Assembly (NCBI RefSeq): GCF_024502345.1
Contig: NZ_JALDNN010000001.1
Source: Escherichia coli
GTDB taxonomy: Bacteria; Pseudomonadota; Gammaproteobacteria; Enterobacterales; Enterobacteriaceae
Reading direction: 5' to 3' (one strand)
Length of the DNA stretch: 64,000 bases
Positions 7,839 to 57,322 of the stretch are shown in pieces. The position numbers and the translations under genes are program-made. Position 1 is the stretch's first letter, and every line of letters starts with the position of its first letter. The notes below the pieces were generated by a model. That model did not search any database. It was not told the DNA's origin and worked only from the letters and a program-made list of their open reading frames with translations.

Positions 7839-8055
7839 AATTTAACCTTCATTTGATGTTGAATTGAACATATCAAAATCAGGCAATTACACAAATATAT
7901 GTACAGGCTCGCACCTGGGCTTGCCTGACTGACCGCAGGCCGGCGACGACAAGGTGGAAAAGTTCGGCGTGTGGCTCTGGCGGCAACGATCCCGCGAAGG
8001 GCGGACGGTGCTTGAGCTGTTGAACGTAAGCATGCGGGCAAACCATCTTGCGCGA

Positions 8056-8430
8056 CTATGCCGGATGCCACCTATGCGGCAGCAGCTCTGCAATCTCACT
8101 AGCTCGCTGCGTCGGCAACCGTCTCAGCACATCCTTGAGATAGGCATACGGATCGTGCCCATTATTACGGGCCGACTGGATCAAACTCATGATCGCAGCA
8201 GCGCGCTTGAGCATGCGAACCCGCGCCGAGCATTTGAGAAGGCAACGGGATGAACGCTGGCTGGATAGCCGTGGTTTTCTGGGTAAGCAGGCGAATCCAT
8301 TTGTGGACGAGGTTGGCATTGAGGCTGTAGCCCAAGGCGATGTTTGCGATGGAGGCACCGGGTTCAGAACACTCCTGAATGACCTGGGCCTTGAAAGATT
8401 TGCTGTAGGTACGGCGCTGAGGGCGCATGG
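8056..8430 (-). pseudogene. IS66-family remnant: TnpA-like N-terminus fused to TnpC C-terminal tail, internally deleted
   Basis: MRPQRRTYSKSFKAQVIQECSEPGASIANIALGYSLNANLVHKWI (TnpA-like) and ...SLIQSARNNGHDPYAYLKDVLRRLPTQRASEIAELLPHRWHPA (IS66 transposase C-terminal signature) in adjacent frames. Confidence 0.6.
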
Positions 8431-8935
8431 AAAATCCGCTTGATGGGCCATGGCCTTCGGCGGCGGTGTCGGGAAGGTGTGTTGGCCGGACGGATACTGT
8501 TGAACTACGTTGTCTGGGGCAACGGAAGTGTTTCGGCCCGACTCTGGAACGCGATCCGCAGCGACGACTGGGCAATTCCGCACGTTGGCCTGAGCAGCCT
8601 CGGGGAAATCGTCGTCTGGGCGCGCCCAGACGAGTTTCCGCCAAGGAACATGCAGACAAGCAAGGGGCTGCGGGCACTCGGCTACAACGTGAGGATCGGT
8701 GTTTGATCGAGGCGCCTGTGGCACACGCAGGCTGAGGAGCCAGGCGCTGTCCATTGCCTGATCAGGCCGCCCCCCTGTGCCTTGCCTGAGCAGTTGACCT
8801 GCATCAATGGGGCGGGAGAACGCTGCACATTGCACTCTTGACTCCTGAAGTTTTTCATGGTAAGCCTAATATTACAAAGTATTGCAAGGATTTCCTTGGC
8901 CGGAACCGCAAAGCGACGCGATTGGAGAGGGTGAG

Positions 8936-45900: not shown

Positions 45901-48900
45901 CGCATCATACTGCCAGCGGAATAACTCTCTTCGTCAATACGGCTCTCGCTGTACGCTTACCCATCTAGAGAGGTTTCAGGTGATTATCGATGTCAGAAGA
46001 CTGAATGATTCAGTCGTTTACTTTGAGATAGATCAGAGGTTTTTCACTACCTGTGTTCATCACATGGCTACGAATAGTAGAATCCAAGCATAAATTAACG
46101 CTTAGAAAAGTTGAGCTCATGAGATTCCACCCTGAAGGGCCTTCCATACCCGATATCCTCTTAGAACGCTGTGATACAGGTCGAGTTGTATTTCTCTGTG
46201 GCGCTGGGGTTTCATTACCTTCAGGGATGCCAAGCTTTGTAGAGCTTACCCAGCATGTAATTGAATACTTTGACCCACCACACGATTCAGAAATCATGGC
46301 AGCATTTCGCCCATGGCTTCACGACCAATCTTCAGCTAATGTCCCTCTCGACCAAATTTTCAACCTCCTACATCTGGAATATGGCAAGGATGAGGTGAAT
46401 GCTTTGGTATCAAAGCGTCTGGGGACTGCAAGAACTGATATAGAGATTGGACGTGAGCATGCCCTGATTAAAAGAATTTCCTCAAATCAGAGTGGTGTCC
46501 CACAGATTGTCACAACGAACTTTGACCGACTGTTCGAGGATAACCAAGCGCAAGATAATCTAACTCGATATGTGCCGCCAGCTTTCCCAAATCTGAATTT
46601 CGGTTCGACAATTGAGGGAATAACATATCTTCACGGCCGCCTGGTCGACGAAAATGCTGTAAACCATCCTTATGTGCTGAGCAGTGCAGACTTTGGAAGA
46701 GCATATCTTTCAGAAGGATGGGCGACCAATTTTATTAAGCTTCTTCTGGAACGATACATCGTTGTTTTGGTCGGTTATCAGGCAGAAGACCCACCAGTTA
46801 AATACCTCCTTCAGGGTCTCAATCATGATGGCCAGTATGATCGTTCCAGACTTTATGCATTTGATCGCGGCCTTGCCGAGGATATCGAAGCCAAATGGCG
46901 TGACAGAGGAGTTACAGCCATAGCCTATTCCGATCATCCAGCTCTTTGGAAGACTTTGGAAGCATGGGCTGAGCGAGTAGATGATCCACGTCGATGGCGA
47001 GCTTCTATTATCGCTAAAAGCCAGCAAGATCCGAAAGTTCTAGCACCGTATGAACGTGGTCAACTTGCCCATATACTTCGCACTACACAAGGTGCGAAAT
47101 TGTTCTCTGAAGCTGTTCCTCTTCCCCATCCAGAGTGGCTTTGTGTGATGGATGCAAATATTCGGTCAGCCAAACAGAAGAAAAGATACTACGAACTTGA
47201 TGACAATGATGCAGAGACCTTCGATCCACAAGAAGCTTATGGGCTTGATGACGATCTGCAAGATATCGCTGATGATGAACGTAAACGTGGAGTGAGTAAC
47301 GATAATCTCCTTGAATGGCGCGACGAAGATGATAACCCGTCAGATTACCATCGCTTGGCTGGATGTTTGGAGACAATGCCGAAACGATTGAGCCATCTCA
47401 TGGTCTGGTTCTGCAAATCTCTTGATAGCCCCGTGATGGCTTGGTGGGCTATCCGAAAAATCAGTATTCATCCTCTACTACTACAAAATATTGAACGCAA
47501 TATTGAGCATTCAACATCAATCCACAAACGCGCTCGTCAACTGTGGGGCTTAATTCTTGAACATCATAAAGATCCCCGCAATCGTCGTTATGACGTCGAT
47601 TGGTACGACTTAAAAGCTCGAATTACAAAACAAGGCTGGACAGCTGGTGTCTTACGAGAATTTCGTAGGGTAATGACACCCCGATTGGAAAAGAAGTTGC
47701 CGTATGGATTGGGTGAAGTCAGACCGCCAAGCGGCTCCTGGGAGGAAATTCAGTTCAGCGAATTTGGCCAATTTGAAGTTGTGTTCACCGAAAGACATGA
47801 TGACGATTTAGACGTACCTGACAATGTATTACTACAAGTATTTAATGCCTTAGAAGCGCAAATAATAACTGCCTCCGGAATGTTAGAGGATATTGATACG
47901 CACTACTTTCCAAGCCCAAGTTGTTATCCAGAACGTGCGGTTGAAGGAGAAGAACATTTCGCGAAAGGTGCGGAGGTATTAACTTGGTTTGTCCAACTTT
48001 TAGACCGAGTTGTTATGAAGTGGCCAGAATTGGCTAAGGCATACGTAACAACTTGGCCAGTTAAGGAGCCATTTTTCTTCCGAAAGCTTAGACTTTATGC
48101 ATTCAGTAAAAAAGGCGTCTTTGAGGCTGACCGTGTTGCCGAAGAGCTTTTGTCTTTGGATCAAAGTGGATTTTGGGACACAAATATTACCCGCGAACTT
48201 CTTTTTCTGCTCACTGATCGTTGGGAAGAATTCTCGCAAGAAAATCAGAATCGAATTATAGAGCATATATTAACCGGCCCGAACCATTTACTTTATTTGT
48301 CTGAGGAAGACATTCCAAAAGAAAGAGAGATATTAGCAGCTAGATACGCTCGTTATCTCGAACTAAACGGCTGTAAAGTAACCACTATTCATCGTGACCA
48401 ACTAACTGCGATGATTAAAAGAATTCCTGACTGGAATGATGGCTGGGCTACATCTGTTGTCATCAATTGGGGTTCACGGACAGGTTGGGTTCGTACAGAC
48501 GAAAAGCCAGATATAATCTTAGATCTTCCAGCAAACGAAATAATCCCAAAAGTAAAAGAGATACTTAAACGAGAGGATGATAGCTTTACTAGTAGGCAAC
48601 CCTTTGTCGGATTGATAAAAGAAAATCCGCGTAAAGCTTTGTCTGCACTCGCTATTGCAGGGAGAGGCGGTGATTACCCTAAGGAATTTTGGTCGCCAAT
48701 GATAAGTGAGTTACCTATAGATCTTAAACCAAGGGTGAGACGAGTATTCCTGAACCGAATTGTGCGATTGCCAGTTACAGCTTTGGTCGAGTTACGACAT
48801 ACATTAAGTAACTGGCTTGAACAAAATTTAGCTGCGACTCTTGAATTTGATGAGGATCTCGGGTGGGCAGTTTACGATCATGTCATAGCAGGCATACTGA

Positions 48901-49333
48901 GTGGTGGCGCCAGTGCAATACGGAGTAGTTTCGGAGAAGTTATCCGGAATGGAGAAGTTGTAATACAGTCTCGCCGCACGTTCAGTCATGCAATCAATGG
49001 TCCTGTCGGTAAATGTACTCAAGCGCTTTTTCAAGCAATGCCAAGTGAAGAGAAAAAAGCTGGTTCGCTTATTCCTTACTCTATTAAGTCTCGTATTGAA
49101 CATCTTTTTACTGCACCAGGAGAAGGAGCGGACCACGCTATAGCTATAACGTCTCGCAATCTAAATTGGCTAATGTTTGTTGATCCTGCATGGGTAAAGG
49201 AATGGCTTATACCCCTTTTGGATTTAAAACATCCTGCAGCAGAACCAGTATGGAATGGTTATCTTCAGTGCAATGCTATGCCTTCAATTGCAGTAGCTGA
49301 ACTTATTAAACCAGCTTTTCTTAACCTTATCCC

Positions 49334-50390
49334 GGCTTTGTTGAATAAATCAGATTTCGGGTAAGTCTCCCCCGTAGCGGGTTGTGTTTTCAGGCAATAC
49401 GCACGCTTTCAGGCATACCTGCTTTCGTCATTTTGTTCAGCGCTCGTACCAGGGCCATAGCCTCTGCAACCTGACCATCGTAGTCACGCAGTGTCAGTGA
49501 ACCCCCGAACAGCTGTTTTACCCGGTACATCGCCGTTTCCGCTATCGAGCGACGGTTGTAATCTGTTGTCCATTTCCACCGCGCATTACTCCCGGTCATT
49601 CGCTGATTAGCCACTGCACGGTTACGGTCTGCATATTCACCGGGCCAGTAACCCGCACCTTTTCGGGGAGGGATAAGCGCGCTGATTTTCTTACGCCGCA
49701 GTTCATCGTGACATAGCCGGGTATCGTAAGCGCCATCGGCGGCGGCTGACCTGATTTTCCGGTGGGTTTGCCGGATTAACCCGGGGAAGGCCTCTGAGTC
49801 CGTAACGTTGTTCAGCGACAGGTCAGCGCAGATGATTTCATGTGTTTTACTGTCAACGGCGAGATGCAGCTTACGCCAGATACGGCGGCGTTCCTGGCCA
49901 TGCTTTTTGACTTTCCACTCGCCTTCACCGAAGACCTTCAGCCCGGTGGAATCAATTACCAGGTGTGCGATTTCACCCCGGGTGGGCGTTTTGAAACTGA
50001 CATTAACCGACTTTGCCCGCCTGCTGACACAGCTGTAATCCGGGCAGCGTAGCGGAACGTTCATCAGAGAAAAAATGGAATCAATAAAGCCCTGCGCAGC
50101 GCGCAGGGTCAGCCTGAATACGCGTTTAATGACCAGCACAGTCGTGATGGCAAGGTCAGAATAGCGCTGAGGTCTGCCTCGTGAAGAAGGTGTTGCTGAC
50201 TCATACCAGGCCTGAATAGCTTCATCATCCAGCCAGAAAGTTATGGAGCCACGGTTGATGAGGGCTTTATTGTAGGTGGGCCAGTTGGTGATTTTGAACT
50301 TTTGCTTTGCCACGGAACGGTCTGCGTTGTCGGGAAGATACGTGATCTGATCCTTCAACTCAGCAAAAGTTCGATTTATTCAACAAAGCC
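49334..50390 (-). mobile_element. IS903-group element, copy 2, inverted relative to copy 1, with 9-bp TSD CCTTATCCC
   Basis: Same terminal repeats as copy 1; CCTTATCCC at 49325-49333 and 50391-50399. Confidence 0.92.
49390..50358 (-). CDS. IS903-type transposase (copy 2)
   Basis: 322-codon ORF with translation identical to 38097-39065. Confidence 0.92.
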   Translation of the reverse strand: MKDQITYLPDNADRSVAKQKFKITNWPTYNKALINRGSITFWLDDEAIQAWYESATPSSRGRPQRYSDLAITTVLVIKRVFRLTLRAAQGFIDSIFSLMNVPLRCPDYSCVSRRAKSVNVSFKTPTRGEIAHLVIDSTGLKVFGEGEWKVKKHGQERRRIWRKLHLAVDSKTHEIICADLSLNNVTDSEAFPGLIRQTHRKIRSAAADGAYDTRLCHDELRRKKISALIPPRKGAGYWPGEYADRNRAVANQRMTGSNARWKWTTDYNRRSIAETAMYRVKQLFGGSLTLRDYDGQVAEAMALVRALNKMTKAGMPESVRIA

Positions 50391-51152
50391 CCTTATCCCT
50401 TGGATCGAATCTCTTTCTTGGGAAAAAGATTATTCAGTTCGAGCTTCGCAATGGCTTGGCTTAATGAGAATGTTTCACCCTGATGAGCCCTCCAGTCCTT
50501 CCAGGAATGAAATGCGCTCCATATTACGAGCATTATCTGACGAGGCTCGAAATCGTTTTATTTCCTGGTTAGGATTGGTCGGGCAGAAAAACGAGAGTGG
50601 CTGGGTTAAGTATGTGATCCCATTAATCAGAGAGGACTGGCCCAAAGAACGCCAATATAGAACCACGAGCTCTGTAAAAGCATGGATTGGTTTACTTGAC
50701 GATACTGGCGATAAGTTTCCGGAGGTTTACGATTCAGTAAAAACATACTTAGTACCAATCGAGACAATTGATCATTTGTTCTACAGATTCACTCGGGAGC
50801 TCGGTGGTAAAGGAGCAATTGCAGCTATTTTTCCAGAAACCACGCTTGATTTAATGGACAAAATAACACCACTGATATTCACGCGTACATCAGGAGAGCT
50901 GCAGAAGATTCTTGAGCTAATTGAAGATACAGATACAAGTCTGATCAAGGATTCTCGGTACTTACGGCTTATTGCACTGGTTGAGAAAAATTAGCATTTA
51001 TGGTTTTTTACCGTTGTTGATTACTCAGCAACACTTTTCGACATGCCGTAGCGCTTATCGCCTGTTCTTGACTAAGATGAGAAGCAGGCGTTAAAGTTTG
51101 GTTAAAGGAGAACCTCTAACCATTCCTTCTGGAAGAAATAATCTTTGGAGTA

Positions 51153-51875
51153 TTATTGAAATTGCTCAAATATACCATGCAACCCAATAAATTTTATTTT
51201 TAGTGCAGGATCATGCCTTAGAACAGTCTCAAGTGAGTTCCGCTCATAAATTATTGATTGTGCTTGTATTGAGCCGTTCCATGAAGGCAAAAGCAGTAAA
51301 GCAGATGTTTCCAAATCAATACCCCACCAATCGTTAACATAGCAATTTAAAAAATCAACAAGAGCCTTAATCGCAATAAAAGCATCTTTTTCGGTATATG
51401 TTTCAGGATCGAGGGATATACCTGATATATTACTTTTAGCTTGCTCGGAATTAATATTAGACTGGTGTTGATAAGCAATTTTTCCTTCACCCGGTTTAGT
51501 TTCTATTGTATCAGTGAAAATTTTAATCTTAGGATGCACCAATGCATTTCGTTGTGCTATTAATTCTTTTATTATTTGTGTTTGAGTGGTTCCACGAGGT
51601 AAAGACATGTCTTTATGCCATTGAAGAGTATAGTCAAATTTATCAAGTGAAGAGAACCTGTCAATTTGATCTTTTAACTTTTGCGTTATTTCTATAGAAG
51701 ATAAAAATGAGTTAGCTGCAGCCTCAATAGCGTAGTTAATTGAAAGTACACTTGATTTGGCAAGTGTTTTTTTGATGTGTGATTTTTTTGTTGCAGCTGA
51801 TAATTCATAAAGAGTTATTGCATCAGAAAAAAGCTCAAAAAAGCTGTTCTTGGTTATTTCAACTTTTCTTTTCAC
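51153..51875 (-). CDS. P3: hypothetical ~240-aa protein with possible HEPN-type R-x4-H motif
   Basis: ORF 51153..51881; ELIAQRNALVHP contains R-x4-H; start uncertain (TTG at 51881 or GTG at 51875). Confidence 0.55.
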   Translation of the reverse strand: MKRKVEITKNSFFELFSDAITLYELSAATKKSHIKKTLAKSSVLSINYAIEAAANSFLSSIEITQKLKDQIDRFSSLDKFDYTLQWHKDMSLPRGTTQTQIIKELIAQRNALVHPKIKIFTDTIETKPGEGKIAYQHQSNINSEQAKSNISGISLDPETYTEKDAFIAIKALVDFLNCYVNDWWGIDLETSALLLLPSWNGSIQAQSIIYERNSLETVLRHDPALKIKFIGLHGIFEQFQ

Positions 51876-51965
51876 ACGCAACCCTCTGCATAAAAAAATA
51901 AAATCATATAGACAGAATACAATTTCCTATAATCTTTATATTCTACTAATTGTGGATATAAATGG

Positions 51966-53438
51966 CTATCGAGAATAAGAACTGGGTTTAGGAAAACCAC
52001 CTCTGACGACGACAACAACAATTGCAACTTGAGATTGACCTGTTGGATGAGTGAATACTTCAATATCATCCTCTATTACTCCCACCGGCGCTGATTTTGA
52101 CGTTGATTCCAGAACAACCAAAATACCGATACGCTTACCTAATCCAATGGCATAAGCTGCTGTTTGATCGAAATATTTTTGAAAATCCTTGGGAAAAAGA
52201 ACCTTATTATTTTCAACTTTTAGTTCTATCGAAATGTCTTCAAATGTGAGATCCGTTATCCCGCCAGCAGCCTCTGGATGGCCTTGTAATTTCTCGCCAA
52301 TCTCATTCCTACTTCTAAGCATTTCGGCTATTTTACGCTGAAATTTTTGCTCTGATGTGCCAGCAATAAATAAACTAGCTTTAAGAGCTTGTGCTGCAAC
52401 ATTTCCTAAGCCGCCAAGTATAACCATTGTATTAGCAATGTCATCTGAGTGTAATCCAGGGAAAGCTCGTAATATGTTACGAATTTTTATAAGATGCCTA
52501 TCGACGTTTGAAAATCCAGTTAATGGAGCTTGAGCGGAATCACTCCCTTCAAGTAGTAAGCGCCTATGTCCTACGATAGCAATATTTTGGCAATTACTTA
52601 AATTGTCAAACTCGGCAGCATATAGGAATTCGTAAGGTCTCGAGCCAAATGAATTTGCCACTTCCAAGACGACACGACCGATCCCCTTCAGTGTGAAGGG
52701 GCCTTCCCCCTCTGGTTTCTCAAATCTAAAATCAGGCAACCAGTCTCGCTCACGAGCATCAATTGTCACTGGCTTTAATGAGAGGAAATTTGCACTTTTT
52801 GGCCAATTTGAAACCCTGACCTCTATGTTAAGGTCATAAGCCGTACCCGGCTTAAGATAATTCCATTGCTGAGCTGGTTCCCCATCAATATCAAACTTTA
52901 GAAATGCAACTGTCGATTCTTGTGTTTTATTCTCTTTTGTCCCTTTACTAGATATTCCTTGCCTAATCCCCTCAATATTTTTATCGCGAAGATTTGCGAA
53001 TAAGAGTAGTGGCAATGACCAGCTTGTTAACTGGTCTTGTATTTGTTTTAATGAATCTAATTTACTGATTGAACGGACTTGCTCTATAAATTCATTAAAT
53101 TGTTTGTTCTCCGAGAGACTCGTCGTCATGTCGATCTCTGATGCTTTTAATTGTGCTGAATTTAAAAACCTTTGAGCATCAGTCTCAGCATTACGTATAG
53201 CATGTTTCCACTCAGCTAGAGTTACAAATATAGTCATTGCTATATAATATGCACGATATTGATCTTCAACATATCCCTGACCGAGCTCATCGAGCGTTTC
53301 ATTGAGCTTTTGACACGCTTCTTTAAGTTTCACCAAGTCATTCGGAATGGACTTGAGTGCACCATCCAACGCTGCTGCAATCTCAACCCTCGGAGAAAAA
53401 GCTTGGCGGAAAATCTCGAAATTTGGCTCGTTCTTCAT
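51966..53438 (-). CDS. P2: hypothetical ~490-aa protein with possible PD-(D/E)xK-like nuclease core near the C-terminus
   Basis: ORF 51966..53480; C-terminal GGITDLTFEDISIELKVEN...GILVVLE resembles a D...ExK core; any in-frame Met start overlaps the P1 3' end by at least 56 nt. Confidence 0.55.
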   Translation of the reverse strand: MKNEPNFEIFRQAFSPRVEIAAALDGALKSIPNDLVKLKEACQKLNETLDELGQGYVEDQYRAYYIAMTIFVTLAEWKHAIRNAETDAQRFLNSAQLKASEIDMTTSLSENKQFNEFIEQVRSISKLDSLKQIQDQLTSWSLPLLLFANLRDKNIEGIRQGISSKGTKENKTQESTVAFLKFDIDGEPAQQWNYLKPGTAYDLNIEVRVSNWPKSANFLSLKPVTIDARERDWLPDFRFEKPEGEGPFTLKGIGRVVLEVANSFGSRPYEFLYAAEFDNLSNCQNIAIVGHRRLLLEGSDSAQAPLTGFSNVDRHLIKIRNILRAFPGLHSDDIANTMVILGGLGNVAAQALKASLFIAGTSEQKFQRKIAEMLRSRNEIGEKLQGHPEAAGGITDLTFEDISIELKVENNKVLFPKDFQKYFDQTAAYAIGLGKRIGILVVLESTSKSAPVGVIEDDIEVFTHPTGQSQVAIVVVVVRGGFPKPSSYSR

Positions 53439-55956
53439 ATTCTTTCTCCAACTCAGCCGTAAGACCATTCCATTTTTCAATTAAGTCATTATAGGGTTCG
53501 CAAACACTTATGGCATGTTCAATGCTAGCTGCTTCTGTAACTAAAGCAGCCTTAAGTTTCCATTGTGTATTTCTTTCATCATTTGGAATTTCTTCCAGTA
53601 GTTCCTTTAAACAAACATTTGCAGTTACGTTATCACCACACTTGCTTAACGCAGCCACGTACACTAATGCTTCAATAAATTGTTGAGGTTTAAATGGTTT
53701 CAGAGCATTGAATGCTTTTTGGAGATCGTCTTTACAATTTCGAAGCTCATCATGTGGCGCTCTTAATATCACTGAGATGCAGTCATCAATAGAAATACTG
53801 CGAGTATACTCATCCTGAATTGCTTTGAGTGCGACTTTGACAAAACCGGGAATATCATCAAAATGAAAACGCAATCGATTGATAGCATCATAAAGTGCAC
53901 TTCCTTCTAAAATTAATAATATATTAGAAAGAAGCAATCCAATTTTCCCCTTTCTCTCTTCATCTGATAAGCAAAGAGAAGAAAAAACGTCAATGCATTC
54001 TACAATGAAATTATCTTTTTTATCTTGTTGAATATAATAGCAAATTAGATTCCATAGCCGGGATCTCACAAGTCCCCGTTTCTCCTCAGGAAAAGATCTA
54101 CGGCTCAAAGCGCGAACAGCATACTGATGCACCATAACATATTGATCTAATAGCAAGACTGAATATGCTTCGAAGAATAAATCTGGGAAATTCTTCACTA
54201 AATCATAGGGAACATTTTCCCACGCTTGTACGGCACGTGCTCGAATCAATGTACTCTCATCCATAAGAGCACGATACCAATCGGAGAGCACTAGTGTTAG
54301 GCTGTCAATACCAGTTAATAACTTAGAAACATGGGCAATCATGTTCCCACGCATTTGAGTTTGTTCTTCTGGTAAGCTTCTATAGAGATGAAGAAAATCA
54401 TCGATTCCTTCACTCCCTCTAGATTTAGCTCCAATCGCAGCCCATTCAATCAATGCACCCTGTAAGCCATCAATAGCATTACGCTTATTACTTTTATCTA
54501 AATGATCTAGAAAACTCTCATTTATTTCTATGATTTTTTCTTTATTCAACGCCTCAAATTTCTCGCTTAGCGTTGCAGCCGCTCCGATCAAATCGTCAAA
54601 ATTATCAACTGCAAGCTCAGCAAATTCGTCCCAAGAGTGTCTAAAGAATTGTCCTGCATCATCCATGCTATCCTCTGGATTTTCCACAGCAGCCCAGAGC
54701 AAACGCCTAAAAGCTATTTTTTGTGTCTTTCCTGTTTTACTTTTTTTTCTATAGTTATTTCGCAGTACAGATCTGTAAGCTCTATTGGCCTCATGTCTCC
54801 CAATATCATCTTTGTCAGCAAGATAGGATTGAATAACTTTATCGCTTTCATCGGGAAATCTATCTAAGTATTTCGTAGCAGCCTCCCGAAGAAAGAAAAG
54901 AATGCTGCTATCTCTCCGCTCCTCCGGGAGTAGAGTCCGTCGACGCATCAGCTTAGCAAATATACTTCTAATATGTCTTAGAAGCAGCTCATCATCATCC
55001 GATGCAATAATTATCTCAATAGCAAATTGAAATTTTCCCCGGTGAGTATCTTTTATGTATTCATCAACAACATCACAGATATCAGCTTGTCTTTTTTTAA
55101 AAAGTGACTGAATGGGGCCTTTATTAAGTACTTTTCGCTCAAATGTGCCAATCATCATTCCAGGAGGAGATTCAACAGCCATTCTAACAAAGTGGTAAAG
55201 GACTTTTAAGAAATCATCTTCAGATAGATTCTCTGCTTCCAAGAGGATTGCTTCTATAGCTAGTGGACAATATTCGAAGTTGTTTATTAAATATACTGAA
55301 ATTGCCAGTTTTTCCGCTTGTGATAATTCAGTTCTTATTAAAGCTTTTGCTGCTGGCATTGAATATGGTAATTTCTCATGTAACACTGCAGGCAACAAGT
55401 GTTCAATTATTTTACTTGTAAATGTCTCAGGTGCCAGATTAGCAAGTTGTTCCAAACGGGGATCGTTGTTCTCTATATCCTCTTGATCGAGTTCATCAAG
55501 CAAATCAAGCACAAACGTTTCTTCTAGAGTAAGTGAAAGACGTAATACTGCTCGTTCTTGTTGTCTATTGAGCTGCTTCTGCTTTCTCTGCCTTTCTTCT
55601 TCTTTGCGAGCCAAATTTCGTTCTTCGGCAGATTTTTCTCTTGGGCCTACAAACTCTAAAATATTGGGAAATCCCACCGGAACCCGTTGATTACAATGTT
55701 TACAGTTCTGTTTATAGAAGCTGTAAACCGAGTCTTCCAGCAGCCAGCTAAGCATTGAACTTTGCTTAACAAATTTGCATTGAACTCCCATGTGACCAAT
55801 GGGTAACCCTGTTTCAGCCTCAATCATGCCTCTCCCCTCTGATCGAATGAATTCAGAGTGAGAACACCAGTTACTAAGTAGGTGTACAGCACGGAGATTT
55901 CGTTGACCAGCTTCGATTGCCTCTTCAAATCTTTTTTTATCTTCAAAATCATCCAT
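53383..55956 (-). CDS. P1: hypothetical 857-aa largely helical protein with N-terminal Cys/His cluster
   Basis: ATG start MDDFEDKKRFEE; N-terminal C-x-H...C...C-x2-C arrangement (NWCSHSE...GVQCKF...QNCKHCNQ), then a basic coiled-coil and long helical region; low GC. Confidence 0.65.
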   Translation of the reverse strand: MDDFEDKKRFEEAIEAGQRNLRAVHLLSNWCSHSEFIRSEGRGMIEAETGLPIGHMGVQCKFVKQSSMLSWLLEDSVYSFYKQNCKHCNQRVPVGFPNILEFVGPREKSAEERNLARKEEERQRKQKQLNRQQERAVLRLSLTLEETFVLDLLDELDQEDIENNDPRLEQLANLAPETFTSKIIEHLLPAVLHEKLPYSMPAAKALIRTELSQAEKLAISVYLINNFEYCPLAIEAILLEAENLSEDDFLKVLYHFVRMAVESPPGMMIGTFERKVLNKGPIQSLFKKRQADICDVVDEYIKDTHRGKFQFAIEIIIASDDDELLLRHIRSIFAKLMRRRTLLPEERRDSSILFFLREAATKYLDRFPDESDKVIQSYLADKDDIGRHEANRAYRSVLRNNYRKKSKTGKTQKIAFRRLLWAAVENPEDSMDDAGQFFRHSWDEFAELAVDNFDDLIGAAATLSEKFEALNKEKIIEINESFLDHLDKSNKRNAIDGLQGALIEWAAIGAKSRGSEGIDDFLHLYRSLPEEQTQMRGNMIAHVSKLLTGIDSLTLVLSDWYRALMDESTLIRARAVQAWENVPYDLVKNFPDLFFEAYSVLLLDQYVMVHQYAVRALSRRSFPEEKRGLVRSRLWNLICYYIQQDKKDNFIVECIDVFSSLCLSDEERKGKIGLLLSNILLILEGSALYDAINRLRFHFDDIPGFVKVALKAIQDEYTRSISIDDCISVILRAPHDELRNCKDDLQKAFNALKPFKPQQFIEALVYVAALSKCGDNVTANVCLKELLEEIPNDERNTQWKLKAALVTEAASIEHAISVCEPYNDLIEKWNGLTAELEKEYEERAKFRDFPPSFFSEG

Positions 55957-57322
55957 TTAGATAACACCCTTATAAGGAACATGTACTCATCTAAAATGCT
56001 GTTACCGGATTATTATACCTAAAACAATGAATGCTGTGTATTATGAAATGTGATATAAGTCAATTAGTTACATATAAAAACCAACTCACATCCAAAAGGA
56101 TAGTATTTCGAGGTTTGTAGCATCATTAAATGTGAACTTATTTATCGCCCCCTCAAGTTAACTAATAAATAAGTTATAATTTACATATACTTCTGGAATT
56201 TAGAAACCTTATATCTAATAGTTGAGTAAGTTAATAATCAACATGAGTGTGATTCATAAAAAAAATAATTATTATTTTCAGCCCCTCCATTATGGAGGAG
56301 CAATAATAGTATAGTTTTCCTGTATTCCTAACGATCCAGTTAGGCTTAGAGAAATCTAATTATGAAGCACTCCTGAGAGCAACCCTTCCAACTTTATCAA
56401 TATAATCCGCATACCACTGCATCATCTCTCTCCTGCCTTCCAAATACAGCGCATGGTTGTACGTCCCGCGAATCGCATTCTTATCGACATGCGCAAGCTG
56501 GGTTTCAATCCATGCGGTATTGAACCCTTCCTCATGCAAAATCGTACTCATCGTGTGGCGGAAACCATGCCCCGTTACCTTCCCCGTGTACCCAATCCGC
56601 TTAAACACCTGATTAATACTCGCTTCGCTCATTGTTTTGCGGGGATCATTCCTCCCAGGAAACACCAGAGGATATTGCCCAGACATCACTTTGAGCTGCT
56701 GTACGATCTCCAGCGCTTGGGTAGAGAGGGGCACCAGGTGAGGCCGTTTCATCTTCATGCGCTCTGCAGGTATTTCCCACACCGCTTTTTCAAGATCAAA
56801 CTCACTCCAGAAAGCACCTCGAAGCTCACCGGTGCGAACCCCCGTAAGGATCAGCAAACGTGCGGCAAGAACAACCAGCGGGCTGCCTGTATAGCCAGAA
56901 AGAGCTTTAAAGAAATCTGGTAACTCCTCAACGGTAAGGAAGGGATAATGCTTCGATTCATGCCCTGACATCGCGCTGGTTAGATCCGCAGCCGGATTGT
57001 ATTCCGCACGACCGGTAACTATGGCGTAGCGAAAGACTTCGCTGCAGCGCTGGCGAACTTTCTTGGCCTTCTCTGTCGCACCACGGCTTTCCATTCGACG
57101 CAGTACATTCAACAGAACAAGAGGCTTAATTTCATTGACTGGCTGCTGACCGATATAGGGAAAAATATCTTTATTTAAAGCTTCGATAATGTCCGATGCA
57201 TACCCTTCTGACCATCTGCTCACCTTCGTACCGTGCCACTCAAGCGCCACAGACTGGAACGTATTATGATCTTACCCAGCAATAGTGGACACGCGGCTAA
57301 GTGAGTAAACTCTCAGTCAGAG

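Follow-up and report, generated by a model that had tools for sequence, protein, structure and literature searches.

Olokun and a linked stand-alone HEPN-fold gene of an unnamed family in the thrW island of Escherichia coli

Introduction

Olokun is a two-gene anti-phage system (Millman et al., 2022; PADLOC profiles PDLC03925 and PDLC03926); the name was not used in the first version of that preprint. Its proteins, OloA and OloB, assemble 2:2 into a complex of ~278 kDa in which the PD-(D/E)xK domains are paired and cut phage DNA (bioRxiv 10.1101/2025.07.10.664194). OloA has been described in the literature as adaptin-like, and plasmid DNA is reported there to be nicked by Olokun. DNA of T7, SECphi17 and SPO1 was degraded in vitro, E. 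coli chromosomal DNA was spared, and active-site mutations in a Pseudomonas OloB disrupted the complex; phage protection and phage-DNA cleavage as a 2:2 complex have been established only for a Pseudomonas homolog (bioRxiv 10.1101/2025.07.10.664194). The present analysis concerns three genes at positions 51153-55956 of a 64,000-nucleotide stretch of Escherichia coli DNA (contig NZ_JALDNN010000001.1 of assembly GCF_024502345.1; 'the window'), termed P1, P2 and P3 in order of transcription. P1 and P2 were identified as OloA and OloB. P3 was modelled as a HEPN-fold protein, and the three genes probably fall into two units with genetic linkage in a single lineage, a standard oloA-oloB pair and an autonomous HEPN module.

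Several single-gene HEPN systems have been described. ApeA cuts tRNA anticodon loops after activation by a ligand and causes abortive infection (bioRxiv 10.64898/2026.01.26.701840). In DARNA, a HEPN-associated tRNA anticodon nuclease that is also a single protein, the activator is single-stranded DNA presented by the phage single-stranded DNA-binding protein. Phage protection has also been reported for Esos of V. cholerae and for HNPBCG_15845 of V. mimicus, a HEPN AbiU2-like protein.

Identification of OloA and OloB

P1 matched the PADLOC profile for OloA (PDLC03925; E 2.9e-77, residues 43-854), and P2 matched that for OloB (PDLC03926; E 4.8e-58) over its full length, at profile positions 2-551 of 556. 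The C-terminus of OloB (residues 376-503 of the 504-aa open reading frame (ORF)) also matched the C-terminus of the LmuA model (E 3.6e-13). Neither protein matched a Pfam or NCBIfam model. The gene for OloA, the non-catalytic partner (53383..55956, minus strand; 857 aa, 98.9 kDa), lies upstream of, adjacent to and co-directional with that for OloB, the effector (51966..53438, minus strand; 490 aa, 54.7 kDa), and the two overlap by 56 nucleotides (53383..53438). As listed, the P2 ORF spans 53480..51966 and encodes 504 aa from a TTG. The ATG at 53438 was assigned as the start because the listed homologs are ~490 aa long and their alignment begins there.

This layout is shared by a metagenomic locus (L006), which also has the 56-nucleotide overlap, and by loci L010-L023. 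At 15 further OloB loci from representative genomes OloA was immediately upstream in every case (15/15), with the same overlap. There were 285 OloB homologs, all of ~490 aa among the 120 matches listed. Hosts of OloAB include Serratia, Yersinia, Geomobilimonas, Marinobacter, Sulfurospirillum, Sulfuricurvum, Chlorobiaceae, Calditrichia, Rhizobium and Aliivibrio. Identity between the OloA of the window and the OloA upstream of each OloB homolog examined was 52-84%. Because both PADLOC profiles were matched, gene order and the 56-nucleotide overlap are conserved, and the D...ExK triad is intact, P1 and P2 are OloA and OloB of Olokun, a named two-gene anti-phage DNA-nuclease system. Compared with Olokun as described (Millman et al., 2022), the pair agrees in profiles, gene order, overlap, triad and protein sizes and shows no differences of its own; the sole oddity is the additional co-directional HEPN gene downstream, found only in a subset of Enterobacterales loci.

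An earlier note on this DNA had described the three genes as a combination that was not recognised as a named system. That description no longer holds for P1 and P2, since Olokun is in PADLOC and has been studied biochemically (bioRxiv 10.1101/2025.07.10.664194). Its proposal that the block is defence cargo of an integrase-associated island was borne out. In RefSeq all three genes are labelled 'hypothetical protein' in every E. coli genome carrying them, and for two of these the names OloA and OloB can now be given. The block itself is rare, being present in 7 of 5,426 complete E. coli genomes.

OloB begins with a helical domain, continues with a beta-rich region and ends in a PD-(D/E)xK nuclease. 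The motif D396...E405-L-K407 (52218..52253, minus strand; DLTFEDISIELK), which had been noted by eye as a possible PD-(D/E)xK core, is strictly conserved: D396, E405 and K407 (GGITDLTFxDIxxELKVE) were invariant in 15 homologs from several phyla. Against this stands the AlphaFold2 model of OloB, which was built from a shallow alignment of 15 sequences, had a pLDDT (predicted local distance difference test) of 59 and showed the nuclease core as disordered. It was kept out of the fold search, and because it is poor the nuclease assignment rests on the profile hits, the motif and the literature. A hidden Markov model search with the OloB alignment (A2) against PDB sequences gave chance matches only. 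The N-terminal Cys/His cluster of OloA (55693..55866, minus strand), also pointed out previously, was confirmed as conserved, C31, H55, C60, C85 and C88 being invariant in 12 OloA homologs; judged by these residues it is possibly a zinc site. For the OloAB of the window the published Olokun model was adopted, by which a 2:2 complex with paired nuclease domains would cut phage DNA.

Two further observations were made on these proteins. The E. coli OloB is 54-71% identical to those of Chlorobiaceae, Calditrichia, Campylobacterota, Desulfobacterota and cyanobacteria, and mean column identity in alignment A2 is 82%. Such conservation of OloA and OloB across distant phyla is unusual and suggests strong constraint, or else wide horizontal transfer that is frequent or recent. 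OloA also contains an R-x5-H (54331..54351, minus strand; residues 536-542, QMRGNMIAHVS), in which R536, N538, M539 and H542 were invariant in 12 homologs. The spacing is HEPN-like, and chance matches are expected at the size of OloA. As a candidate second HEPN domain it was rejected, hhalign of OloA against the P3 family being negative.

Fold and family of P3

P3 (51153..51875, minus strand; 240 aa, 27.3 kDa) is a stand-alone protein with a GTG start. Its ORF as listed spans 51881..51153 and encodes 242 aa, counted from a TTG; in homologs and in RefSeq the start is the GTG two codons on, at 51875, which is preceded by an AGAGGG ribosome-binding site. The R-x4-H in P3 (RNALVH, R109...H114 in the 240-aa numbering; 51534..51551, minus strand) had been read in the earlier note as a HEPN signature. 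A lone R-x4-H is unremarkable, with a chance expectation of ~0.15 in a protein of this size, and the motif counts here because its R and H were invariant in 25 close (alignment A1) and 40 diverse (alignment A4) homologs. Across the 40 diverse members, at 20-46% identity, the only invariant residues were F12, E51, K79, R109, H114 and F175.

The structure of P3 was modelled as a four-helix up-and-down bundle with RNALVH at the C-terminal end of helix 99-115. The invariant E51, part of an LEAAAN motif, is in helix 34-60 (helix 2), and a helical hairpin of residues 67-90 fills the insert between helices 2 and 3. In HEPN proteins the R-x4-6-H ends helix 3, and the helix 2-helix 3 insert is a variable position (Anantharaman et al., 2013, PMC3710099). 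Residues 120-160, which form a beta-hairpin insert, and residues 200-240 are the least conserved. Fold matches were obtained to 1ufb, 1wol, 2hsb, 1wwp, the HEPN domain of sacsin, the HepN toxin SO_3166, two HEPN-MNT toxins, HI0074 and YutE, and the closest solved folds include the HEPN toxins of HEPN-MNT pairs (5yep, 7ae2, 8xdj). Foldseek against AFDB50 gave full-length matches (template modelling score 0.7-0.9, ~20% identity) to uncharacterised proteins of 220-250 aa, some of them named HEPN AbiU2-like, Apea-like, RiboL-PSP or pEK499-p136. Model and motif conservation together support P3 as a HEPN-fold protein and a predicted RNase.

P3 homologs formed 45 clusters in a 90%-identity database, nearly all of ~240 aa. 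A profile search returned 414 clusters at 50% identity, 238 of them with E<=1e-10 and almost all of 220-250 aa. P3 itself had no significant match in Pfam, NCBIfam, PHROGs or PADLOC and matched no HEPN family model, and in PADLOC-DB no match was obtained even at E<=10, either for P3 or across eight family members. Pfam HEPN_AbiU2 did not match the family; HEPN_RiboL-PSP reached a best i-E-value of 5.8e-3, with 5 of 25 members at E<=0.1, and HEPN_Apea one of 5.0e-3, with a single member. Because no member reaches Pfam significance, the family was taken as a separate, unnamed HEPN branch. Hidden Markov model searches with alignments A1 and A4 against PDB sequences gave chance matches only. Longer members of the family (302-476 aa) had no PADLOC match (0/8), and Pfam gave none for P0198, the only one scanned. 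No partner domain was thereby identified, the P0198 contig being too short to reveal neighbours; for more distant contexts, P0180 and P0183 come from contigs of 1-2 kb. No viral match was found by Foldseek against viral structures or by tblastn against phage genomes, so a phage origin or an anti-defence role of P3 is unsupported. Of the checks proposed in the earlier note, PADLOC was thus positive for P1 and P2 and negative for P3, Pfam was negative for all three, and structure prediction bore out the HEPN fold of P3, the nuclease fold of OloB not being confirmed.

P3 was compared with the described HEPN groups. With the families related to abortive infection (HEPN_AbiU2, HEPN_RiboL-PSP, HEPN_Apea and pEK499-p136; Anantharaman et al., 2013) it has in common the four-helix core with the R-x4-H ending helix 3 and the acidic helix-2 residue, a length of ~220-250 aa, a stand-alone architecture and a place in defence islands; it differs from them in sequence, best i-E-values being 5e-3 to 6e-3 and from few members only. 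ApeA is likewise a single gene with a HEPN effector and offers the closest mechanistic parallel to a solo HEPN protein, but P3 is much smaller (240 aa) and has neither the ApeA N-terminal domain nor a match to the ApeA profile. Esos and HNPBCG_15845 are single-gene, HEPN-only Vibrio integron cassettes, as is the P3 homolog of V. parahaemolyticus, and were likened to it by description only; the 'integron cassette HEPN' family of PDB 3jrt was grouped with these cassettes, again by description. Relative to the toxins of HEPN-MNT type II/VII toxin-antitoxin pairs, P3 is ~100 residues longer, with the beta-hairpin insert and a C-terminal extension, and it lacks an adjacent nucleotidyltransferase antitoxin in the contexts examined.

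Distribution of OloAB and P3

The distribution of the genes did not support the view of the earlier note that all three form one system. P3 was present at 5 of 18 distinct OloAB loci and absent from 13, including two in Enterobacterales. By tblastn it was found downstream of OloB at 4 of 15 loci from representative genomes and metagenomes, namely L006 (metagenome), L010 (Serratia bockelmannii), L011 (Yersinia proxima) and L012 (Serratia proteamaculans), where OloB is at least 83% identical to that of the window. At 11 more distant OloAB loci with downstream sequence there was no P3, and nothing was conserved after oloB. The enterobacterial loci without P3 are a P4-like satellite at ssrA (OloB 84% identical; order integrase, 214-aa gene, OloA, OloB, AlpA, DUF927 primase) and a Serratia locus (OloB 75% identical) with a convergent integrase directly after.

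Conversely, P3 homologs were found in seven contexts outside Olokun. Those without OloAB, at 41-77% identity, are in Pseudomonas viridiflava, Alkalimonas, Vibrio parahaemolyticus, a Budviciaceae strain and two Shewanella sites. In the thrW island of Enterobacter hormaechei, P3 is kept at 95% identity and oloAB has been removed by a clean 3.9-kb deletion; the counterpart of window positions 51990..55895 is absent, and the first 61 nucleotides of oloA and the last 24 of oloB are left. The E. hormaechei locus (L026; NZ_CP056156.1, 47542-66246) is on a 361-kb record deposited as a plasmid. The record carries pepD, gpt, frsA, crl, phoE and proBA, which belong to the chromosomal core, together with the thrW island, and probably represents part of a chromosome or a replicon that was assigned wrongly.

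Neighbours of the solo P3 homologs were searched with PADLOC, and 5 of the 7 contexts adjoin known or candidate defence genes. The Budviciaceae homolog is beside MkoC of Mokosh II (E 0) and the PDC-S20 KAP NTPase, the Alkalimonas homolog beside a fused AriAB of PARIS (E 4.7e-200), a Shewanella homolog beside an OLD/AriA-like ATPase and the Pseudomonas homolog beside a TIR protein. The V. parahaemolyticus homolog (L003, 8001-8723) is flanked by attC-like repeats at 7864-7983 and 8721-8842; because these bound that gene alone, it was assigned as a one-gene integron cassette. In the Budviciaceae locus (L005) a DUF2058 gene (8320-8859, 179 aa), with no PADLOC match, lies between MkoC and the P3 homolog, all three being co-directional. 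The neighbours of P3 in Alkalimonas were considered as P3 paralogs, and hhalign was negative.

Because OloAB mostly occurs without P3, and P3 homologs mostly occur without OloAB, the locus was read as a known two-gene system plus an independent HEPN gene, and P3 is probably not an Olokun subunit. In Enterobacterales a P4-type island at thrW carries both units, in most cases alongside Dsr1. The Olokun part of the locus was already known; what is new is P3, which, as judged from sequence, is a candidate single-gene defence or toxin family of a known HEPN kind. The family is compact and distinct in sequence (~414 clusters at 50% identity), has no Pfam, NCBIfam or PADLOC model, and is mobile as a one-gene cassette.

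Alternative explanations

A three-component variant of Olokun was considered, in which the P3 of Enterobacterales is a true accessory or effector subunit, for instance a back-up RNase fired when OloAB is engaged or inhibited. The observations that weigh against separate units belong here. OloA (80-97% identity), OloB (83-97%) and P3 (81-97%) diverge in parallel in the lineage that carries all three, comprising E. coli, Serratia, Yersinia and one metagenome, and the trio recurs at L006, where the flanks differ and Dsr1 is absent; this makes the linkage old enough to be consistent with functional coupling. The genes are co-directional, and the gap between oloB and P3 (51876..51965, minus strand; 90 nucleotides) contains the AGAGGG ribosome-binding site and a weak promoter-like site (51968->51940, 9/12 matches), the count of such sites in the region being equal to the shuffle expectation. 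The gap is kept in L010 and L006 and in part in L011 and L012. No minus-strand terminator was predicted between oloB and P3, so their co-transcription is likely. HEPN genes are, moreover, often embedded in DNA-targeting operons (PMC3710099), and few contexts were sampled (18 OloAB loci and 7 contexts of solo P3). However, P3 is missing from most OloAB loci, even from the two enterobacterial ones at 75-84% OloB identity, and the published two-gene Olokun suffices for complex formation, DNA cleavage and defence. Its homologs, further, stand beside unrelated systems or alone in an integron cassette, and in E. hormaechei P3 has outlasted the loss of oloAB. A three-component Olokun was accordingly judged unlikely.

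A second alternative is that P3 is an addiction or stress toxin with no anti-phage role, which stabilises islands or integron arrays or serves a stress response. The chromosomal integron array in which one homolog was found is a common setting for toxin genes, a stress-response role has been proposed for integron-borne HEPN domains (Anantharaman et al., PMC3710099), and HEPN-MNT toxins are among the closest solved folds. A classical addiction toxin, however, requires a cognate antitoxin. Neither an MNT nucleotidyltransferase antitoxin nor a conserved small ORF was found beside P3 in the window or at L001-L008, and the Vibrio cassette has space for one gene. The defence genes that adjoin five of the seven solo homologs also speak against this explanation, which was considered rather improbable.

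HEPN domains may be catalytically inactive or act as binding modules, which is a further point against an effector role for P3; a silent scaffold or regulator that binds RNA or nucleotides is nevertheless hardly credible, since 40 members, at only 20-46% identity, all retain the R, the H and the helix-2 Glu, which is the pattern of an active site and not of a degenerate one.

Proposed mechanism of P3

As an autonomous HEPN module, P3 would be a metal-independent RNase, likely a homodimer with a composite active site as in other HEPN enzymes. In the uninfected cell it would be kept silent; on infection, its cleavage of tRNA or mRNA would halt growth in the manner of abortive infection. The poorly conserved residues 120-160, with the beta-hairpin insert, and the C-terminal 40 residues are candidates for the sensor. 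Olokun and P3 at thrW would on this model provide layered immunity at the DNA level and the RNA level and would not be a single three-protein machine. P3 is a candidate new single-gene anti-phage or abortive-infection system, and bears on the question of a possible back-up role of HEPN RNases in DNA-targeting systems.

A broader version of this model was also considered, in which P3 is a portable RNase, a 'second layer' that plugs into DNA-nuclease defence systems and is coupled to them independently of the system. P3 homologs are co-directional beside Olokun (PD-(D/E)xK), Mokosh II (PLD), fused PARIS (Toprim) and an OLD-like ATPase. P3 would in that case sense a common by-product, or the failure, of the partner nucleases and turn restriction at the DNA level into abortive infection at the RNA level. 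ApeA responds to deoxydinucleotides, and on that analogy the signal may consist of short 5'-phosphorylated DNA fragments. Such general coupling is very doubtful.

The thrW island

The three co-directional ORFs are on the minus strand and, as the earlier note had it, form a low-GC block between a SIR2 gene and a P4-type integrase; GC content is 0.34-0.41 over the block and 0.50-0.57 in the flanks formed by proA and insertion sequences. The site is the thrW island of E. coli. Its boundary (56360..59056, minus strand) consists of a P4-type tyrosine integrase (56360..58856) split by IS3 (57323..58494), followed by tRNA-Thr(CGU) (58981..59056), which adjoins proA. E. coli PSJ-29 has an intact copy of the island, with an unbroken integrase of 398 aa and the three-gene block at 3612239-3617042 of NZ_AP027639.1. 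The SIR2 gene, a neighbour outside the operon, is Dsr1 (46053..50994, plus strand). It is split by IS5 (transposase 49390..50358, minus strand), both fragments being matched by PADLOC and NCBIfam, and is intact in E. coli PSJ-29, Serratia and Yersinia (1267-1291 aa). Given the IS5 split, Dsr1 is probably inactive in the window strain. The split integrase and the other insertion sequences suggest that in this strain the island can no longer move and is decaying; oloA, oloB and P3 are all full length despite them.

The candidate defence system PDC-M09 was found in the same island (40702..45296, plus strand). Its PDC-M09A is 196 aa in the window and covers profile positions 128-280 of 282, which indicates N-terminal truncation; the protein is 281 aa in E. 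coli PSJ-29. PDC-M09B has 481 aa (E 1.7e-213); a further protein, of 840 aa, resembles PDC-M09B weakly. Just upstream of the truncated PDC-M09A, at 38097..40809, are ORFs of 322 aa (plus strand) and 354 aa (minus strand) with no PADLOC match. Both are absent from the intact PSJ-29 island and are probably insertion sequences that disrupted PDC-M09A. A WYL-domain helix-turn-helix regulator (37105..37983, plus strand; PADLOC WYL, E 5.8e-20) is encoded upstream of the PDC-M09 genes. WYL regulators are frequent controllers of defence operons. The locus is thus a thrW defence island with Olokun, a solo HEPN gene, an IS5-split Dsr1 and a disrupted PDC-M09.

Disruption by insertion sequences was also seen in other strains. 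In E. coli ET826 (NZ_CP100901.1, 2924991-2931290) the Olokun block is interrupted by the IS5-like ISKpn26, and in E. coli ET729 (NZ_CP100927.1) only 0.7 kb of it is left, with IS5 and IS1 on its sides. Erosion of the island mediated by insertion sequences is therefore recurrent.

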